Source: Bacilli bacterium
GTDB taxonomy: Bacteria > Bacillota_I > Bacilli_A > RF39 > UBA660
Length of the DNA: 43,299 nucleotides
Direction: 5' to 3'
NCBI GenBank assembly: GCA_045580645.1
Contig: JAZNOG010000039.1
Span: 1-43,299 of the forward strand
The notes below the pieces were generated by a model that saw only the letters and a program-made list of their open reading frames with translations, had not been told where the DNA came from and made no database searches. Positions 8,559-26,481 of the stretch are shown here, in pieces (within the stretch, counting starts at the first letter, position 1; each line of letters starts with the position of its first letter). The position numbers and the translations under genes are program-made.

Positions 8559-9227
8559 TTATTTTTTTGCCAAAATAGAAAGTGCAGATTTTGCAGCTTC
8601 TTGTTCTGCCTCTTTTTTAGAACCCCCAATACCCTCACCAAAAACAATATCATCTACTTTAACAACAACTTTAAAAACTCTTTCATGGGCTGGACCAGAT
8701 TCTTCTAATAATTCATAAACTAAAGATCGTTGATCAGTTTGAACAGCTTCCTGTAAAACAGATTTATAATCACTAAATAACATAATATTTTCATCCTCAA
8801 TATAAGGAACAATTATCTTAAGTGCTACATCTTTTGCTTTTTCAAAACCTAAATCCAAGTAAATAGCAGCAATAAAAGCCTCAAAAACATCAGCTAAAAT
8901 AGCCTTTTTATGAGTCCCACCACTTCTTTGTTCACCTTTTCCAACTTGAATATAATTACTAAAACCTAAGTCATTAGCGTATTCATATAAAGCATTTTCA
9001 CAAACATAACTAGCTCTAATCTTAGTCATTTCTCCTTCTTTATACTTTTTTGCATTATATAAATAATCAGAAACAACTAAATCAACAATAGTATCCCCCA
9101 AAAATTCTAAAGTTTCATAAGAATAAGAAAGATTATGTTCATAAGCATATGAAGTATGAATAAAAGCCTGTTCATATAAAAATATATTCTTAAAATCTAT
9201 ATCTAGTTTTCTTAATAATTCTATCAT
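8559..9227 (-). CDS. rnc: Ribonuclease III
   Basis: ETLEFLGD signature and a C-terminal dsRBD (GGSKKEAEQEAAKSAL). The start is set at MIELLRK (9227), which has a GGTGA SD. Confidence 0.93.
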   Translation of the reverse strand: MIELLRKLDIDFKNIFLYEQAFIHTSYAYEHNLSYSYETLEFLGDTIVDLVVSDYLYNAKKYKEGEMTKIRASYVCENALYEYANDLGFSNYIQVGKGEQRSGGTHKKAILADVFEAFIAAIYLDLGFEKAKDVALKIIVPYIEDENIMLFSDYKSVLQEAVQTDQRSLVYELLEESGPAHERVFKVVVKVDDIVFGEGIGGSKKEAEQEAAKSALSILAKK

Positions 9228-11480: not shown

Positions 11481-12980
11481 TTATATAATTTCTACAATAG
11501 AATTATCCATTTCTAAAGGTTTTTCAACACCCATTATATATAAAATAGAAGGAGCTATATTACTTAAACTACCATTTTTAACCTTATAATTTCTATCACA
11601 AACAATAAAATGAACTAAATTAGTAGTATGTGTAGTTAAAACTTCATTATTTGGGCCTATCATTTCCTCACAATTACCATGATCAGCAGTAACTAACAAG
11701 ATAAAATCATTAGAAATAGCAAGTTCATAAAGCATTCCCAAACACTTATCAACTTCCTCAACCCCTCTTACAGCAGCATCAAAATTACCCGTATGACCAA
11801 CCATATCACCATTTGCTAAATTAACACATATAAAATCATAATTCTCTATTAATGAAGATATTTTTAAAACTACATCTCTAGAACTCATTTCTGGAGCTAA
11901 ATCATATGTTTTTACATCTTTTCTGTCTATCTTTATTTTATCAGTTAAAGAAAAATAAACATCTTTATCTCCATCTAAAAAATGAGTTACATGTGGAAAC
12001 TTAGCTTCCTCTGCTATTCTTAAAACTCTAAGTTTATTATTAAATAATACCTCTCCCAACGTATTGTTAACAACTTCATGTTTAAAAATAGAAGCACATT
12101 TAATCTTATCACTTATAGGCATCATAGTAATAACCTTTAAATTGTCCATTTTTTTAATTTCAAATTCACTAAAATTTTCATCAGTTAAAGATAAAGCAAG
12201 TTGAACTAAACGATCTGGTCTAAAATTAGCAATCAAAAAACAATCATTAGAAGAAACAATTCCATTTATATCAACAATAGTAGGCAAAACAAATTCATCA
12301 AAAACACCTTTTTCATACGAAGAACTTATTATATTATTAATATCACCATTTAATACCCCTTCCCCTTTTACAATAGCATCATAATATAATTTCGTTCTTT
12401 CCCAAATATTTTCCCTATCCATTGCATAATATCTTCCAGAAATACTTGCAATTTTTCCAATACCTATTTTATTTAAATAATCACCTAAATCATTCAAATA
12501 ATTTAAAGCAACATTAGGAAGAGTATCTCTTCCATCAAGCACTACATGAATAAATAAATCAGTAACACCCTTCTCTTTTAAAGCAGATATTAAACTATAT
12601 ACATGACTTATATGAGAATGCACTCCACCATCTGATAACAAAGCAAATATATGGAATTTAGAGTTTTTTTCCTTAACATAGCTAATAGCATCATCTAAAA
12701 CACTATTATTAGATAGTTCTCCATTTTCAATACTCCTACTTATCTTTTCCAAAGTTTGAAGCACAACCCTTCCAGCACCAATAGTTAAATGTCCTACTTC
12801 GGAATTACCCATTTGCCCTTTAGGAAGACCCACTGCTTCACCACTTGCTTCCAATAAAGAATTAGGAAAAGTATTAAGAAACATATCTAAATTCAAAGTA
12901 TTTGCAGCCCTTACAGCATTTCCAAAAACATTTTCACTATAGCCTACCCCATCCAGAATAGCAAGCATTACCTTTTTCAT
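11481..12980 (-). CDS. gpmI: 2,3-bisphosphoglycerate-independent phosphoglycerate mutase
   Basis: AILDGVGYS, GNSEVGHLTIGAGR and TADHGNCE motifs; about 500 aa. Confidence 0.95.
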   Translation of the reverse strand: MKKVMLAILDGVGYSENVFGNAVRAANTLNLDMFLNTFPNSLLEASGEAVGLPKGQMGNSEVGHLTIGAGRVVLQTLEKISRSIENGELSNNSVLDDAISYVKEKNSKFHIFALLSDGGVHSHISHVYSLISALKEKGVTDLFIHVVLDGRDTLPNVALNYLNDLGDYLNKIGIGKIASISGRYYAMDRENIWERTKLYYDAIVKGEGVLNGDINNIISSSYEKGVFDEFVLPTIVDINGIVSSNDCFLIANFRPDRLVQLALSLTDENFSEFEIKKMDNLKVITMMPISDKIKCASIFKHEVVNNTLGEVLFNNKLRVLRIAEEAKFPHVTHFLDGDKDVYFSLTDKIKIDRKDVKTYDLAPEMSSRDVVLKISSLIENYDFICVNLANGDMVGHTGNFDAAVRGVEEVDKCLGMLYELAISNDFILLVTADHGNCEEMIGPNNEVLTTHTTNLVHFIVCDRNYKVKNGSLSNIAPSILYIMGVEKPLEMDNSIVEII

Positions 12981-15950: not shown

Positions 15951-17132
15951 CTACTTATCACTTATATTTTTAAGACCAGGCAAATCCTTATTAACGAGAT
16001 ATTCTAAAGTTGCCCCCCCTCCAGTAGAAAGGAAAGTAAACTTATCTTCATATCCCAAAACCTTAGCACAACTAACAATATCCCCACCACCTAAAATAGT
16101 AGTTTCAATATTATTAGATATAAAATCCATCAATTCCTTAGTGCCTTCCTTATATTTATCAAATTCATATACACCAAGTGGCCCATTCCAAAATAATGTT
16201 TTAACATTACTTAACTTCTCCTTAAACAACGATATGGTTGATGGTCCTATATCAAGACCCATAAAATTATCATCTACATTATTAATAGAAACAAGTATTT
16301 TTTCACAATCATTGGAAAATTCATTTGAACCATAAAAATCAACAGGCAAAACTATTTTTTCACCATATTTTGTTAATAACTGTTTACAAAAATCCAGTTG
16401 TTCTTCTTCAAAAATAGATTTACCAACATTATAACCTTTAGCTTTTAAAAATGTATACGCCATAGCGCCACCTATAAAAAGATAATCAACTTTTTCTATT
16501 AAAGCACTAATAACAGGTATTTTATCACTTATTTTAGAACCACCCATAACAACTGCAAAAAGCCTATTAGGATTATCAAGTTTATCAAGTTCTTTAAGTT
16601 CTTTTTCAATTAAAAAGCCTACACCAGAATCTAAATAAGTAGAAATTCCTAAATTAGAAGCATGTCCCCTATGAATTGTTCCAAAAGCATCATTTATAAA
16701 TATATCACCAAGAGATGCCCAAAATTTACCAAGTTGTTCATCATTAGAACTTTCCTTTTTACCATTTAAATCTTCAAACCTAGTATTTTCAAGTAAAATT
16801 GCCTCCCCAAATGAAATATTTTTTATTTCTCCTCTAATCTTATCATCACTAGTGTAAGGAACAAAAAGGACTTTATTAGGAATCAAATAATTAAGTTTAT
16901 CATATACAATTTTTAAACTATATTTTTCTTTATCCTCCATAGTTTTAACCTTACCAAAATGCGATAAAATAACTACTTTAGCATTATTATCAAGCAAATA
17001 CTTAATAGTCTTTAAACTAGATTCAATCCTAGTAGAATCTAGAATCTCTCCATTTTTTACACTTACATTAAAATCACATCTTAAAACAACAGTCTTTTTA
17101 TTTAAATTAAAATCTAAAATACTCTTTTTCAT
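15951..17132 (-). CDS. pgk: Phosphoglycerate kinase
   Basis: VLRCDFNV, a glycine-rich ATP site, and STGGGATLEYL at the C-terminus. Confidence 0.95.
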   Translation of the reverse strand: MKKSILDFNLNKKTVVLRCDFNVSVKNGEILDSTRIESSLKTIKYLLDNNAKVVILSHFGKVKTMEDKEKYSLKIVYDKLNYLIPNKVLFVPYTSDDKIRGEIKNISFGEAILLENTRFEDLNGKKESSNDEQLGKFWASLGDIFINDAFGTIHRGHASNLGISTYLDSGVGFLIEKELKELDKLDNPNRLFAVVMGGSKISDKIPVISALIEKVDYLFIGGAMAYTFLKAKGYNVGKSIFEEEQLDFCKQLLTKYGEKIVLPVDFYGSNEFSNDCEKILVSINNVDDNFMGLDIGPSTISLFKEKLSNVKTLFWNGPLGVYEFDKYKEGTKELMDFISNNIETTILGGGDIVSCAKVLGYEDKFTFLSTGGGATLEYLVNKDLPGLKNISDK

Positions 17133-17164
17133 AAATTCTCCTTTACTTTATAATAACACATTTA

Positions 17165-18349
17165 TTATTTTATATCACTAGAACTTCCTTTTTTAATAAC
17201 ATTAAAACCATATTTTTTATTTATATTATCTAAAACTTCATCTATCTTCTCTTCTTTTTCCCTATCAAAATTTTCAAATAAAGAAACTTGATAATTACAA
17301 GAAACACTTAAATCATCTAGTCTTACACCAATAAGTCTAACACTTTCACCTTTCCACATTTGATTTAATAATTCTACACAAACCTCATATATTTCTTTAC
17401 TATTATTTGTTCCATTTTTTATCTTTTTCTGATGAGATTTTCTCCTAAAATTACTATCCTTTAAAATAACACATATAACAGAAGCATATTTACCCTCATC
17501 CCTAAGTCTTTTACTTGTCTTATTAGCTAAAAAAAGTAAATGTGGTAAAAGATCCTTTTTTTCATCAATATCATAACTTAGTGTAATTTCATTACTAATT
17601 CCTTTAACCTCAGTAAAAGTTACTACCTCGCTATCATCTATTCCATTAGCGTGATCCTTTAAATCTCTATAACTATTTTTAAAATACTTAGACAACTTAT
17701 AACTATCATATAATGCTAAATCTCCAATAGTCTTAATTCCCATTGAAACTAACTTTTCACTTGTTTGCTTTCCAACCCCAAATAATTCTCCAATTGGTAA
17801 AATCCACATTTTTTCTTTTATTTCATGTTCATATAAAGTATGAACCTTATCAGGTTTTGAAAAATCAGATGCCATTTTTGCACATAATTTATTATTACCA
17901 ATACCTATATTCACTGAAAAACCAAGTTTTTCCTTAATTTCATCTTTAAGTTTATAAGCAAATTTTACCTCATCACCATAAAGACTCTTAACCTTTCCAT
18001 AATCCATGTAACATTCATCAATTGATGCCACTTCAATATCAGGTGAATAACTTTGAAGCAAAGAAAACAACATATCACTATATTTAGCATATAAATCATG
18101 ATTAGGAGGAAAAGTTTTTAAATTAGGACACTTTCTAAAAGCAGAATAAATAGTTTCTGCAGTAACAACCCCCATTTTCTTAGCAGGATTACTTTTAGCT
18201 AAAACTATTCCAGTTCTTGTTTCCTTAGAACCACATATAATAGAAGGAATATTTCTAATATCTTCTTTATAACCATTTTTTAGCATATCTACTGCAGTCC
18301 AAGATAAAAAAGCATTATTAACATCTATATGAAGTATTATTCTTTCCAT
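17165..18349 (-). CDS. dinB: DNA polymerase IV (Y-family)
   Basis: ILHIDVNNAF and SIDECYMD catalytic motifs, plus an HhH region LPIGELFGVGKQT. Confidence 0.9.
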   Translation of the reverse strand: MERIILHIDVNNAFLSWTAVDMLKNGYKEDIRNIPSIICGSKETRTGIVLAKSNPAKKMGVVTAETIYSAFRKCPNLKTFPPNHDLYAKYSDMLFSLLQSYSPDIEVASIDECYMDYGKVKSLYGDEVKFAYKLKDEIKEKLGFSVNIGIGNNKLCAKMASDFSKPDKVHTLYEHEIKEKMWILPIGELFGVGKQTSEKLVSMGIKTIGDLALYDSYKLSKYFKNSYRDLKDHANGIDDSEVVTFTEVKGISNEITLSYDIDEKKDLLPHLLFLANKTSKRLRDEGKYASVICVILKDSNFRRKSHQKKIKNGTNNSKEIYEVCVELLNQMWKGESVRLIGVRLDDLSVSCNYQVSLFENFDREKEEKIDEVLDNINKKYGFNVIKKGSSSDIK

Positions 18350-24469: not shown

Positions 24470-24502
24470 TAAAAAAAAGATATATTTTAATTTAATATAT
24501 CT
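24470..24502 (-). terminator. Intrinsic terminator after the 476-aa gene
   Basis: agatatat (24478-24485) pairs with atatatct (24495-24502), followed by T8 on the minus strand. Confidence 0.65.
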
Positions 24503-25931
24503 ATCTTGAACTAACTCTTTTATTATCACTTACATAAGAGACAATTCTTTTTTCTACCTCAATACCCATCAAAGGATTATTTACATCAACATTAGTATTT
24601 CTTTTAGTCATTGACGGATAATTTAAATAATCACTCATTTTTTTCTTGACAAAAACACCAACAATCAAATGATTATTTTCAGAAATATGCTTAACAAGAA
24701 TTCTAATAAAATCACTTTTCAACTTTTTATAACCATTTAATCTAATATCATTACCAGAAAATGTTTCAATATGTTTTTTTGTTAAAATACCCTTTTTAAA
24801 ATCAAATAACAAACTGCCAACCCTAGATAAATATTCCTCAGGAACATCCTTTAAATCTTTTTCAAAATAAGAAACAGAATTTTCATCTACATCTCCAGGA
24901 AAAGCAAAATACAAATTATTAACAGCATCTTCTTCAATTAAATCTTCATATTTTTCACTTTTATATAAACTAATAGAGTTTTCCCTATAATCCCTTAACA
25001 TATTATAAAGTTCAACATATTTATTAAATTCTTTTACACATTCAGTTCTTAAATTTTCATCTAAATAAAATCCTTTTTCATCATAAAAAGAAGAAACTTC
25101 ATATATTTTATCTTGTAATTTTAATAACAAAGAATCAATAACAAATGAAAATCCATTTAAAGAATAATTTTTATCATCTAAAACAACATCATTAGAAAAC
25201 TCTTCAAAATCAAACATAGAAGAATCCATCAAAGAAGCATAACCACCCACTATAAAAGAAAGTTTCTTTTTCTCACTATCCTCTAAAACAGGAAGTTCAA
25301 TTTCTTCATAACCAAAATCAACCATATTTAATATTGAAATAGAATCATCAGTTAAAACAGAATTACTATTAAACATTCTAATGTTTTCAAATAATCTAAT
25401 TTGATCATTAAACTCAAATTCTTTTTCAATTACATCTTTAGATAACATCTCAAGTTCTACATCAGTTAAAGGACAATCACACTTAAAACTTCTAAGTATA
25501 TTTTTATACTTAACAATATCTTCTCTAGAAAATCCATCATATTCTTTTAATTTATTTTCTGAAGATGATAAATCAACAATTAAACGAGATTTAAATTCAT
25601 TTATAAATGTAATAACCCTTTTTATTTCATCAGAATAAAGATCAACACCATTAGAAACATAAGTATTAAAAGCATTTACATTTCTAACTAAATCCCTAAA
25701 AAGATTTTGATATTCACCATTAGTAAATATCTTGTTTATCAATCTACTAATATTATCAAGTTCAACTCCAATAGCAGCATAATCAGTAAGTTCAAAACAC
25801 TCAACTAACTCATTTAAAAGTGTAACTCTTTCATTCAAAACTTCCTTTTCAATATTTTTTTCCTCTAAAAAAAGAAGTCTATTGTTAATAGAAGAAAAAA
25901 GTTTATCAAATAATTCTTTATATTTTTCCAT
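24501..25931 (-). CDS. Hypothetical protein (about 476 aa): helical N-terminal region plus a RelE/ParE-like C-terminal pattern
   Basis: The start is set at MEKYKELF (25931) with a GGTGA SD. The C-terminal part reads YFEKDLKDVPEEY...FSGNDIRLNGYKKLKSDFIRILVKHISENNHLIVGVFVKKK. No homologue recognised. Confidence 0.55.
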   Translation of the reverse strand: MEKYKELFDKLFSSINNRLLFLEEKNIEKEVLNERVTLLNELVECFELTDYAAIGVELDNISRLINKIFTNGEYQNLFRDLVRNVNAFNTYVSNGVDLYSDEIKRVITFINEFKSRLIVDLSSSENKLKEYDGFSREDIVKYKNILRSFKCDCPLTDVELEMLSKDVIEKEFEFNDQIRLFENIRMFNSNSVLTDDSISILNMVDFGYEEIELPVLEDSEKKKLSFIVGGYASLMDSSMFDFEEFSNDVVLDDKNYSLNGFSFVIDSLLLKLQDKIYEVSSFYDEKGFYLDENLRTECVKEFNKYVELYNMLRDYRENSISLYKSEKYEDLIEEDAVNNLYFAFPGDVDENSVSYFEKDLKDVPEEYLSRVGSLLFDFKKGILTKKHIETFSGNDIRLNGYKKLKSDFIRILVKHISENNHLIVGVFVKKKMSDYLNYPSMTKRNTNVDVNNPLMGIEVEKRIVSYVSDNKRVSSR

Positions 25932-26021
25932 AACATCACCATATCCATAATACAATTATACTATAAAAACTAAAAATAGAGAATAGTTTTAAAAACACCA
26001 AATAAAATTAACCAAAAATTA

Positions 26022-26050
26022 TTGTTTTATAAACAATTGTTTGATATAAT
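26022..26050 (+). promoter_or_regulatory. Candidate promoter of the 25-codon ORF
   Basis: TTGTTT (26022-26027), 17 nt, then TGaTATAAT (extended -10, with TATAAT at 26045-26050). Confidence 0.45.
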
Positions 26051-26128
26051 ATTTATGGATACATTTGAAAATATATCAGATGCTTTCCCTTTCAAATATC
26101 ATATGATAAATGAAAGGTGGTGATATTT

Positions 26129-26206
26129 ATGACTAAAAGAGAATTTTCTCTATTTATTATAATATTACTCCTATTTCTAGTTGTAATAATTTTACTTCTT
26201 AAATAG
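26129..26206 (+). CDS. Uncalled 25-aa hydrophobic peptide (candidate type I toxin)
   Basis: The SD GAAAGGTGGTGA precedes the ATG at 26129. Translation: MTKREFSLFIIILLLFLVVIILLLK, stop TAG at 26204-26206. It is too short for the ORF track. Confidence 0.45.
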   Translation: MTKREFSLFIIILLLFLVVIILLLK

Positions 26207-26319
26207 AAAAAGCATCTGATTTCAACATAAGTTGATTTCAGATGCAACCCAAATAAGGGAACGCATTTGATTCCGACAATCAAATGTATTCTTTTTTATT
26301 TTATGCAAGTTTCCTTGAC
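26207..26319 (-). ncRNA. Candidate antisense sRNA convergent with the 25-codon ORF transcript
   Basis: It is bounded by the minus-strand promoter at 26326-26354 and by a 15-position hairpin (13 pairs, 26212-26245) followed by T5 on the minus strand. It overlaps the 3' UTR and terminator (26264-26297) of the plus-strand transcript. Confidence 0.35.
26264..26297 (+). terminator. Candidate terminator of the small-ORF transcript
   Basis: catttgatt (26264-26272) pairs with aatcaaatg (26278-26286), followed by tattcTTTTTT. Confidence 0.45.
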
Positions 26320-26325
26320 ATATTC

Positions 26326-26354
26326 ATAATAACATATTTTCACAATTTTGTCAA
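26326..26354 (-). promoter_or_regulatory. Candidate promoter of the antisense sRNA
   Basis: On the minus strand: TTGACA (26354-26349), 17 nt, then TGtTATTAT (-10 at 26331-26326). Confidence 0.45.
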
Positions 26355-26404
26355 AAATAACATTGCAAAATAAAACCCTCGATAAACAAGGGTAAAATAC
26401 ATAT

Positions 26405-26481
26405 TGGTGGAGAATAAGGGATTCGAACCCTTGACCCCCTGCGTGCAAGGCAGGTGCTCTAGCCAGCTGAGCTAATTCCCC
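26405..26481 (-). tRNA. tRNA-Ala (anticodon UGC), CCA encoded
   Basis: The reverse complement is GGGGAATTAGCTCAGCTGGCTAGAGCACCTGCCTTGCACGCAGGGGGTCAAGGGTTCGAATCCCTTATTCTCCACCA. It folds as a cloverleaf with the G3:U70 alanine identity pair and the anticodon loop CTTGCAC. Confidence 0.95.

Follow-up and report, generated by a model that had tools for sequence, protein, structure and literature searches.

A putative type I toxin–antitoxin module occurring in multiple copies in uncultured small-genome gut Bacilli

Introduction

What is encoded in the gap between positions 26022 and 26354 of contig JAZNOG010000039.1, next to a gene for tRNA-Ala? The contig stretch, 43,299 nt in length and in the following called the window, belongs to assembly GCA_045580645.1 of an uncultured Bacilli bacterium (GTDB lineage Bacillota_I; Bacilli_A; RF39; UBA660). 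A sequence-only reading of the window had proposed that this gap holds a type I toxin–antitoxin (TA) locus, composed of a gene for a hydrophobic peptide of 25 amino acids (aa) and a convergently transcribed antisense RNA. The comparative analysis described here indicates that the gap is one copy of an unannotated pair of a peptide gene and an antisense RNA gene, an arrangement that recurs at 10 places in the host genome and at hundreds in its relatives, which is beyond chance. In our estimate the chance is about three in four that the locus belongs to a multi-copy family, not described before, that has type I TA anatomy and is found in uncultured gut Bacilli with small genomes. The TA interpretation is supported by a conserved open reading frame (ORF) under purifying selection, a sequestered ribosome-binding site, a convergent gene on the minus strand, and the multi-copy and variable character of the module. 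All features listed in the sequence-only reading were found where it had placed them; what it had missed is that the locus belongs to a large family instead of being a singleton, and that the tRNA-adjacent position is a family trait.

The family is new and unannotated; its kind, a type I TA system with an antisense RNA that overlaps the 3′ end, is already known. Also new are the linkage of the modules to tRNA genes and the fact that the module is missing at the orthologous tRNA-Ala site of two congeners. The ORF, the RNA helices, both promoters and the family itself emerge from the comparison of sequences, and both transcripts are predictions. By analogy with bsrG/SR4 and txpA/RatA, both RNAs would be produced, the peptide would be toxic, and RNase III would act on the duplex of the two RNAs.

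Distribution of the module and conservation of the peptide gene

The host has a genome of 1.1 Mb with 27% GC, and a search of this genome with the locus revealed that its 3′ part is repeated at 84–95% identity. Ten paralogous modules were found, eight of which are intact, whereas one carries a frameshift and one lacks the 5′ half (contig C59); two pairs of modules are arranged in tandem. The frameshifted module is the second copy of a tandem on contig C57 (G000:C57, 2345-3250), where a 1-nt shift in the ORF (MKKRNFVIKVLKNNLHHF...) points to either a pseudogene or a sequencing error. Of 41 relatives searched with BLASTN, 21 gave matches to the module (as many as 16 in one genome), and an exact scan with a conserved 24-nt core, using one genome per species, gave at least 120 stretches. 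The matches listed are all from uncultured gut metagenome-assembled genomes (MAGs), labelled Bacilli, Tenericutes, Mollicutes, Mycoplasma sp. or Erysipelotrichaceae, with rabbit, goat, chicken, mouse and human as hosts. A motif on the antisense side of the module occurs in 138 of 401 sampled genomes and in 96 of 214 genera of the taxonomic family, with no match for the reversed pattern, and some genomes of this family carry up to 12 copies as well as tandem arrays. A 48-nt motif at one end of the module is far more conserved than the rest. Descriptions of this module family were not found in literature searches, and Rfam gave no family at E ≤ 10 at the locus except the tRNA and chance matches, and no family match over 10 paralogous or related loci.

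In the subfamily to which the locus in the window belongs, the ORF has 25 codons in 14 of 14 loci and a ratio of non-synonymous to synonymous differences (pN/pS) of 0.18, with 11, 4 and 16 variable columns at codon positions 1, 2 and 3, respectively. For the other subfamilies pN/pS is 0.20–0.47, and over the whole family position 2 varies least. An intact ORF of 24–33 codons behind a Shine–Dalgarno (SD) sequence is present in 90 of the 97 distinct modules with a recognizable start. Five peptide subfamilies can be distinguished, with a common plan in which Met is followed by 3–5 mostly basic residues and a hydrophobic span of about 18 residues, with a Lys at the C-terminus in most subfamilies. 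To judge from these substitution patterns, the ORF is coding and under purifying selection, and the small peptide gene expected of a type I system is present. The ORF and, apart from the leader hairpin, the hairpins of the sequence-only reading are conserved across relatives, family-wide.

None of the five peptide types matched a Pfam or NCBIfam family above cut-off, Fst and Hok included, and an exact look-up of seven peptides in a collection of 15 billion proteins returned none of them, which indicates that such ORFs are missed by gene callers. A scan of the window for hydrophobic peptides also gave a small ORF on the minus strand (909-814), which lies out of frame inside a larger gene and was dropped.

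The toxin half of the module is not always retained. In about 17 of 126 loci the toxin 5′ half is lost and the antisense gene and the 3′ untranslated region (UTR) are kept, and several more loci carry frameshifts or stops. The maintenance of the antisense gene where the toxin has decayed would fit a TA pair. Orphan antisense genes, with an intact 3′ UTR and antisense promoter and a deletion that takes away the toxin promoter together with the ORF's 5′ half, were seen at L012 (819-1213), L017, L037, L072-L074, L082, L086, L090 and L094, and furthermore at L110, L111, L121, L129, L136, L143 and G000:C59 (~17030-17554). At another locus (L076), the leader is fused directly to the terminator region, and the ORF and the hairpin behind its stop codon are gone.

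Structure of the predicted toxin mRNA

The predicted mRNA folds far better than expected by chance, with a minimum free energy of −79.9 kcal/mol as compared to −36.8 ± 3.9 kcal/mol for shuffled sequences (z = −11.1). In the minimum-energy fold, the 5′ end of the mRNA is paired to the transcription terminator: positions 26057-26068 are paired with 26280-26291 in the 3′ arm of the terminator and positions 26075-26083 with 26263-26271 in its 5′ arm. The covariation of this 5′–3′ clamp was examined in an alignment (A1) of 65 diverse modules, in which the pairing amounts to 84% and 91% in the two clamp helices, against 35–45% for slid controls, and 21 of the 29 pairs are altered on both sides. The covariation score is 0.33, as compared to 0.18 for column shuffles, none of 500 of which reached the observed score, and 0.07–0.10 if the partners are slid by 1–3 columns. 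In ViennaRNA ensembles calculated for all 90 modules, the expected number of clamp base pairs is 16–29 (about 25). Furthermore, the duplex of leader and 3′ UTR has an energy of −34.0 ± 3.7 kcal/mol for cognate pairs, whereas −21.2 kcal/mol is found for non-cognate pairs and −12.4 kcal/mol for shuffled leaders. Wobble cells in the clamp comprise 145 G-U against 34 A-C, a bias towards the plus strand, and this G-U excess argues for selection on a plus-strand RNA and not on an inverted repeat in DNA. The comparative evidence for the RNA anatomy of the module, as read from these alignments, is unusually clear.

The terminator itself, which had been claimed at 26264-26297, can be read as a hairpin at 26259-26291 followed by six T residues. 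It is 74% paired, and 11 of its 14 pairs are altered on both sides. Since terminator and clamp use the same nucleotides, they are mutually exclusive. The hairpin behind the stop codon is 68% paired with 12 of 15 pairs altered on both sides, and the A-run at its 5′ side is retained in the family, coding or not.

Upstream of the ORF, the extended −10 element was confirmed, and TATAAT followed by GGA at 6–7 nt was found with a strict rule in 98 of 141 module copies. The covarying 5′ helix starts exactly at this GG, 6–7 nt past the −10 element. From GGA (~26057) to the ATG at 26129 the leader measures 72 nt, in agreement with the proposed length of roughly 70 nt. The strong SD of the 25-aa ORF and its complementarity to an upstream CCTTTC element were likewise borne out; the SD core extends to 26120, 8 nt 5′ of the ATG. 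Folding gives an unpaired probability of the SD of 0.17–0.19 at the locus in the window and a mean of 0.22–0.25 over 90 folded modules. With the SD/anti-SD helix and the covarying clamp, the mRNA has the translation-restraining structure that is expected of a type I toxin. A leader hairpin had also been suggested, and its arms ATTTGAAA (26063-26070) and TTTCAAAT (26090-26097) are indeed perfectly complementary, but this pairing is not conserved in relatives: it is fully retained in only 3 of 14 subfamily loci and lies outside the minimum-energy fold, and it was rejected as the dominant structure. The dominant structure of the mRNA is predicted to be the 5′–3′ clamp on both terminator arms.

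A switch in which the clamp frees the SD and the antisense RNA sequesters it again was considered as well. It was rejected, as the predicted accessibility of the SD over the 90 modules is 0.22 in the nascent mRNA, 0.25 in the full-length mRNA and 0.22 with the 3′ UTR blocked, with no consistent shift.

The spacer of the toxin promoter holds a palindrome, AAACAATTGTTT (26031-26042). In the form RAAC-N4-GTTTG (26031-26043), it lies directly 5′ of the toxin −10, is retained in several subfamilies and has the appearance of an operator. The palindrome resembles the Gram-positive LexA box (GAAC-N4-GTTC), but SOS control was rejected since LexA was not found in the genome, where the only PF01726 match is HrcA with its CIRCE element and the only PF00717 match is a signal peptidase. 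The combination of palindrome and −10 occurs genome-wide only at three toxin promoters (the others at G000:C6 ~12327 and C52 ~16238), which also argues against an SOS box. The hrcA gene (G000:C21, 7690-8750) has a promoter with a textbook CIRCE element, TTAGCACT-N9-AGTGCTAA.

The antisense RNA gene

On the minus strand, the proposed promoter TTGACA-17-TGtTATTAT is present and was listed by a promoter scan at 11/12, and the long hairpin downstream of it is followed on this strand by a U5 run (26211-26207). The small RNA postulated from these elements was thought to be fully complementary to the 3′ UTR of the peptide mRNA; the complementarity is perfect over about 90 nt of the 3′ UTR, and the RNA itself is a prediction. 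Its fold is also better than that of shuffled sequences (z = −4.8).

The conservation of the antisense promoter was examined in 135 distinct loci with a call for sigma-70-type promoters that required at least 9 of 12 matches, and with shuffled sequences as controls. A promoter was found in 116 of these loci, as compared to 20 ± 3.7 in the shuffled sequences, with a TG extension in 114 and a 17-nt spacer in 105 of the 116; most of the loci below the threshold score 8/12. The −35 sequence drifts (TTGATA, TTGACA, TTGTCA, TTGCAA) with retention of TTGnnA. In 104 loci the −10 ends 8 nt 5′ of the CAAG of a 5′-terminal hairpin, which lies outside the overlap with the mRNA and of all parts of the module is conserved best. 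Compensatory variants of this hairpin (GCAAG/CTTGC, GTAAG/CTTAC, GAAGA/TCTTC) were found.

In both 3′ hairpins A-C cells exceed G-U cells, with 89 versus 52 in the post-stop hairpin and 136 versus 63 in the other. Since A-C on the plus strand corresponds to G-U on the minus strand, both 3′ hairpins are better formed in a minus-strand RNA, and this bias lends indirect support to the existence of the antisense RNA. The features of the locus are collected in Table 1.

Table 1 Position of the features of the module and of the adjoining tRNA gene in the window
Feature	Position	Strand	Description
Toxin promoter	26022-26050	+	−35-like TTGTTT (26022-26027), 17-nt spacer, extended −10 TGATATAAT (26042-26050); from sequence
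Predicted toxin mRNA	26057-26297	+	~240 nt, from GGA start to terminator U-run
5′ clamp segment A	26057-26068	+	Partner A′, 26280-26291
5′ clamp segment B	26075-26091	+	Partner B′, 26255-26271
Anti-SD/SD helix	26088-26093 with 26112-26117	+	CCTTTC with GAAAGG; from complementarity and fold
Peptide ORF	26129-26206	+	25 aa, MTKREFSLFIIILLLFLVVIILLLK; basic N-terminus, one hydrophobic span, C-terminal Lys
Post-stop hairpin	26212-26245	− (as antisense terminator)	A-run 26207-26211 5′ of the hairpin; from covariation
mRNA terminator	26259-26272/26278-26291	+	T6 at 26292-26297; arms double as clamp partners
Predicted antisense (antitoxin) RNA	26321-26205	−	~115 nt; from promoter position, fold and terminator
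Antisense 5′-terminal hairpin	26321-26303	−	AUGUCAAG-GAAA-CUUGCAU, one bulged U
Antisense promoter	26354-26326	−	TTGACA, 17 nt, TGtTATTAT; 11/12 plus TG in scan
tRNA-Ala	26405-26481	−	Terminator 26375-26393; upstream of and co-oriented with the antisense gene

Possible mode of action and comparison with known systems

A mode of action can be envisaged in which the extended −10 promoter would yield an mRNA of about 240 nt that encodes a membrane peptide of 25 residues with a single span, and in which the strong ribosome-binding site would be held in a local helix with the upstream CCUUUC. After termination, the first ~35 nt of the mRNA would pair with both arms of the terminator, giving an imperfect, G-U-rich clamp of ~29 bp (−35 kcal/mol) that would bury both ends of the mRNA and may maintain a stable pool of silent message. 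The convergent promoter would produce an antisense RNA of about 115 nt, with a 5′ hairpin capped by GAAA and an end at the complement of the post-stop hairpin. Being the exact complement of the 3′ UTR over the clamp region, this RNA would be a perfected copy of the mRNA's own 5′ end. For the same 62 nt, the perfect duplex has a calculated energy of −103.7 kcal/mol, as compared to −34.9 kcal/mol for the clamp, and due to this large difference the antisense RNA should displace the 5′ end of the mRNA, with formation of a duplex of ~90 bp. Cleavage of this long duplex by RNase III would then remove the protective 3′ structure and lead to decay of the mRNA. By analogy with known systems, RNase III is the enzyme expected to cut the duplex, and a gene for it is present in the window at 8805-9182 on the minus strand (PF14622, E = 6e-36).

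The closest known architecture is that of bsrG/SR4 from the SPbeta prophage of Bacillus subtilis. In bsrG mRNA, nt 1-35 pair with nt 232-262 (helix P1) and the SD is present in a helix (PMC3834814), and when SR4 binds at the bsrG 3′ end, the 5′ nucleotides are set free and decay via RNase III is promoted (PMC3834814). The behavior of this pair provides a precedent for a 5′ end that acts as an intramolecular competitor. Like the module, bsrG/SR4 combines a short hydrophobic peptide, an SD helix, a 5′ end of ~35 nt paired to the 3′ region, and a convergent antisense RNA that is complementary to the 3′ end. There are also differences. Helix P1 precedes the terminator, whereas the clamp of the module uses the terminator arms and excludes the terminator, and the tightening of the SD helix upon antisense binding in bsrG/SR4 is not predicted for the module by folding. 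Unlike bsrG/SR4, the modules reside on the chromosome in multiple copies and often show linkage to tRNA genes; their antisense RNA has a strongly conserved 5′ domain and shares at most the stop codon with the ORF. No profile match to bsrG/SR4 was obtained with Rfam, Pfam and NCBIfam, and a direct alignment to BsrG and SR4 was not made.

Convergent RNAs with overlapping 3′ ends are the layout described for Gram-positive families that include txpA/RatA, bsrE/SR5 and yonT/SR6 (PMC8594479). The modules share the convergent transcripts and the 3′-end overlap with these three families, whereas their peptides are shorter (25–33 aa) and have basic residues at both ends. In the known families the antisense RNA extends over the ORF (PMC8594479), in contrast to that of the module, which stops at the stop codon. 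The resemblance to txpA/RatA and bsrG/SR4 that had been noted from the sequence holds for the layout, but neither system is a sequence homologue, and Rfam, Pfam and NCBIfam searches gave no match to RatA or another antitoxin RNA and none to a TxpA-like protein family.

In hok/Sok and AapA1/IsoA1, the full-length toxin mRNA is shut by long-distance 5′–3′ pairing and is stable and translationally inert. In these systems, the antisense RNA is directed at the 5′ leader or the region of translation initiation, and trimming of the 3′ end activates the mRNA. Only the fold-back principle is shared with the module, of which the antisense RNA would target the 3′ region that is occupied by the 5′ end. 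The antisense gene lies wholly in the 3′ UTR and no Hok family match was obtained, which does not fit membership of the hok/Sok group. The par system (Fst/RNA I-RNA II) of the Enterococcus faecalis plasmid pAD1 resembles the module in being a Firmicute system with convergent RNAs, a shared terminator region and an SD helix. The par RNAs interact via repeats in their 5′ regions, outside the overlap (PMC8594479), and unlike in par, the antisense RNA of the module is a near copy of the 5′ end of the mRNA, not its complement. No Fst family match was found in Pfam and NCBIfam.

Weighing of the type I interpretation

Several observations weigh against a type I TA system. Homology to a described toxin or antitoxin family was not found in the Rfam, Pfam and NCBIfam searches, and the assignment to type I therefore rests on architecture. 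The −35 of the plus-strand promoter is weak (TTGTTT, matching 3/6), due to which this promoter is not listed by a simple scan, and both terminators are too AT-rich for such a scan, which called neither of them; for these elements, the support comes from family-wide conservation. Furthermore, folding predicts a sequestered SD for all states that were modelled, with no activating step among them. Finally, the homologues were gathered via the antisense-side motif, and the retention of antisense genes beside decayed toxins is partly a sampling bias.

Other explanations for the module can also be envisaged. The clear selection on the ORF, together with a peptide that has no match to any toxin family, might be explained by a harmless small membrane protein, for instance one that modulates a transporter or the properties of the membrane, of which the level is tuned by a cis-antisense RNA and which has no TA function. 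This is quite unlikely, since copy number, variable presence, decay and layered repression are what type I toxins commonly show and small housekeeping proteins rarely do: there are up to 12 divergent copies per genome of ~1 Mb, often in tandem and each with a matched antisense gene, their presence differs between congeners, toxin genes decay with retention of the antisense gene, and the predicted repression is layered (SD sequestration, clamp and antisense RNA). We consider it still less probable that we are dealing with a non-autonomous DNA element, mobile or recombining, that settles in the flanks of tRNA genes and terminators and of which the ORF and hairpins are by-products. Purifying selection and constant length of the ORF would not be expected of such by-products, the plus-strand G-U excess in the clamp indicates selection on RNA, both promoters stay in place in spite of drift in the −35 sequences, and the copies that were inspected showed neither terminal inverted repeats nor target duplications, and no gene for a transposase or integrase. 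Nevertheless, the multi-copy, tandem and variable occurrence, the presence of 30% of the copies at a fixed distance from tRNA 3′ ends, and the 48-nt motif end that is far more conserved than the rest would all be in agreement with mobility, and mobility and TA function are compatible and not mutually exclusive.

The chance is very slight that there is no separate gene for a small RNA, in which case the hairpins would do no more than end transcription of the peptide gene and of the tRNA, from either side, and the conserved motif would be bound by a protein or serve in processing. This explanation is favored by the ability of a hairpin with an A-run on one side and a T-run on the other to stop transcription in both directions, and by the tRNA gene directly upstream, but it leaves unexplained that a promoter is present in 116 of the 135 loci at a fixed distance to the 5′ hairpin, even where there is no nearby tRNA, and that a separate terminator is located between tRNA and −10 in most tRNA-linked loci. 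The minus-strand wobble bias in both 3′ hairpins also fits folding of a minus-strand RNA. A type I TA module with its own antisense RNA gene is the interpretation that we prefer.

Association with tRNA genes

Of 128 modules, 38 (30%) have a tRNA gene at no more than 250 nt past the antisense promoter, in each case on the same strand as the antisense gene. The modal distance between tRNA and motif is ~82 nt, nine tRNA species are involved, and the tRNA-Ala in the window is located at 88 nt. The usual order is tRNA, trailer hairpin, terminator hairpin with the −35 in its loop, −10 and antisense RNA. Since module-free tRNA genes carry a related trailer (GATTGATA...ACTCGAAC...GTTCGAGTTTT), the module appears to be positioned in or just after a standard tRNA terminator. 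With or without a module behind them, many tRNA genes in the clade are followed by the same trailer, GATTGATAnnAAACTCGAAC-loop-GTTCGAGTTTT, which is a common terminator. In two congeners, the orthologous block of tRNA-Ala, KH and rpsP genes is present at 85% identity, with no module past the tRNA terminator. Directly upstream, the module in the window is adjoined by an orphan ORF of 484 aa (24501-25955, minus strand), which is also absent at the orthologous tRNA-Ala site of the two congeners.

Some variations on this arrangement were observed. At G000:C6 (~11990-12020), the 3′ end (CCA) of a tRNA lies ~15 nt from the antisense 5′ hairpin with no proper −35, and here the antisense RNA may be made as a co-transcript of the tRNA. 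Another locus (L053) has five tandem copies of AAAGCAAATATA between the trailer hairpin of tRNA-Leu and the hairpin of the antisense promoter.

That antisense genes are located at ~80–90 nt behind the 3′ end of tRNA genes with the same orientation raises the possibility that the antitoxin gene is functionally coupled to tRNA genes, which we mention as a tentative and, on present evidence, unlikely proposal. If such coupling exists, antitoxin supply would be tied to tRNA transcription and be under growth-rate and stringent-response control, a drop in tRNA transcription would lead to toxin release, and the module would spread by settling in the flanks of tRNA terminators. In the same scheme, the 5′ end of the mRNA would be a built-in weaker copy of the antitoxin that sits on the terminator arms.

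Outlook

Gene callers, Rfam, Pfam and NCBIfam all overlook the family, although in a large clade of uncultured gut Bacilli with reduced genomes one in three of the genomes sampled carries it, with copies that reach about a dozen per megabase. Annotation of module loci in MAGs is called for, and the repeats may break assemblies. With five peptide subfamilies, hundreds of matched pairs of mRNA and antisense RNA, and clear covariation, the family offers a comparative resource for studying the co-evolution and mutual specificity of a toxin mRNA, its self-clamp and its antisense RNA. The linkage to tRNA genes, furthermore, raises a testable connection of antitoxin supply or module spread to the tRNA genes of these organisms.

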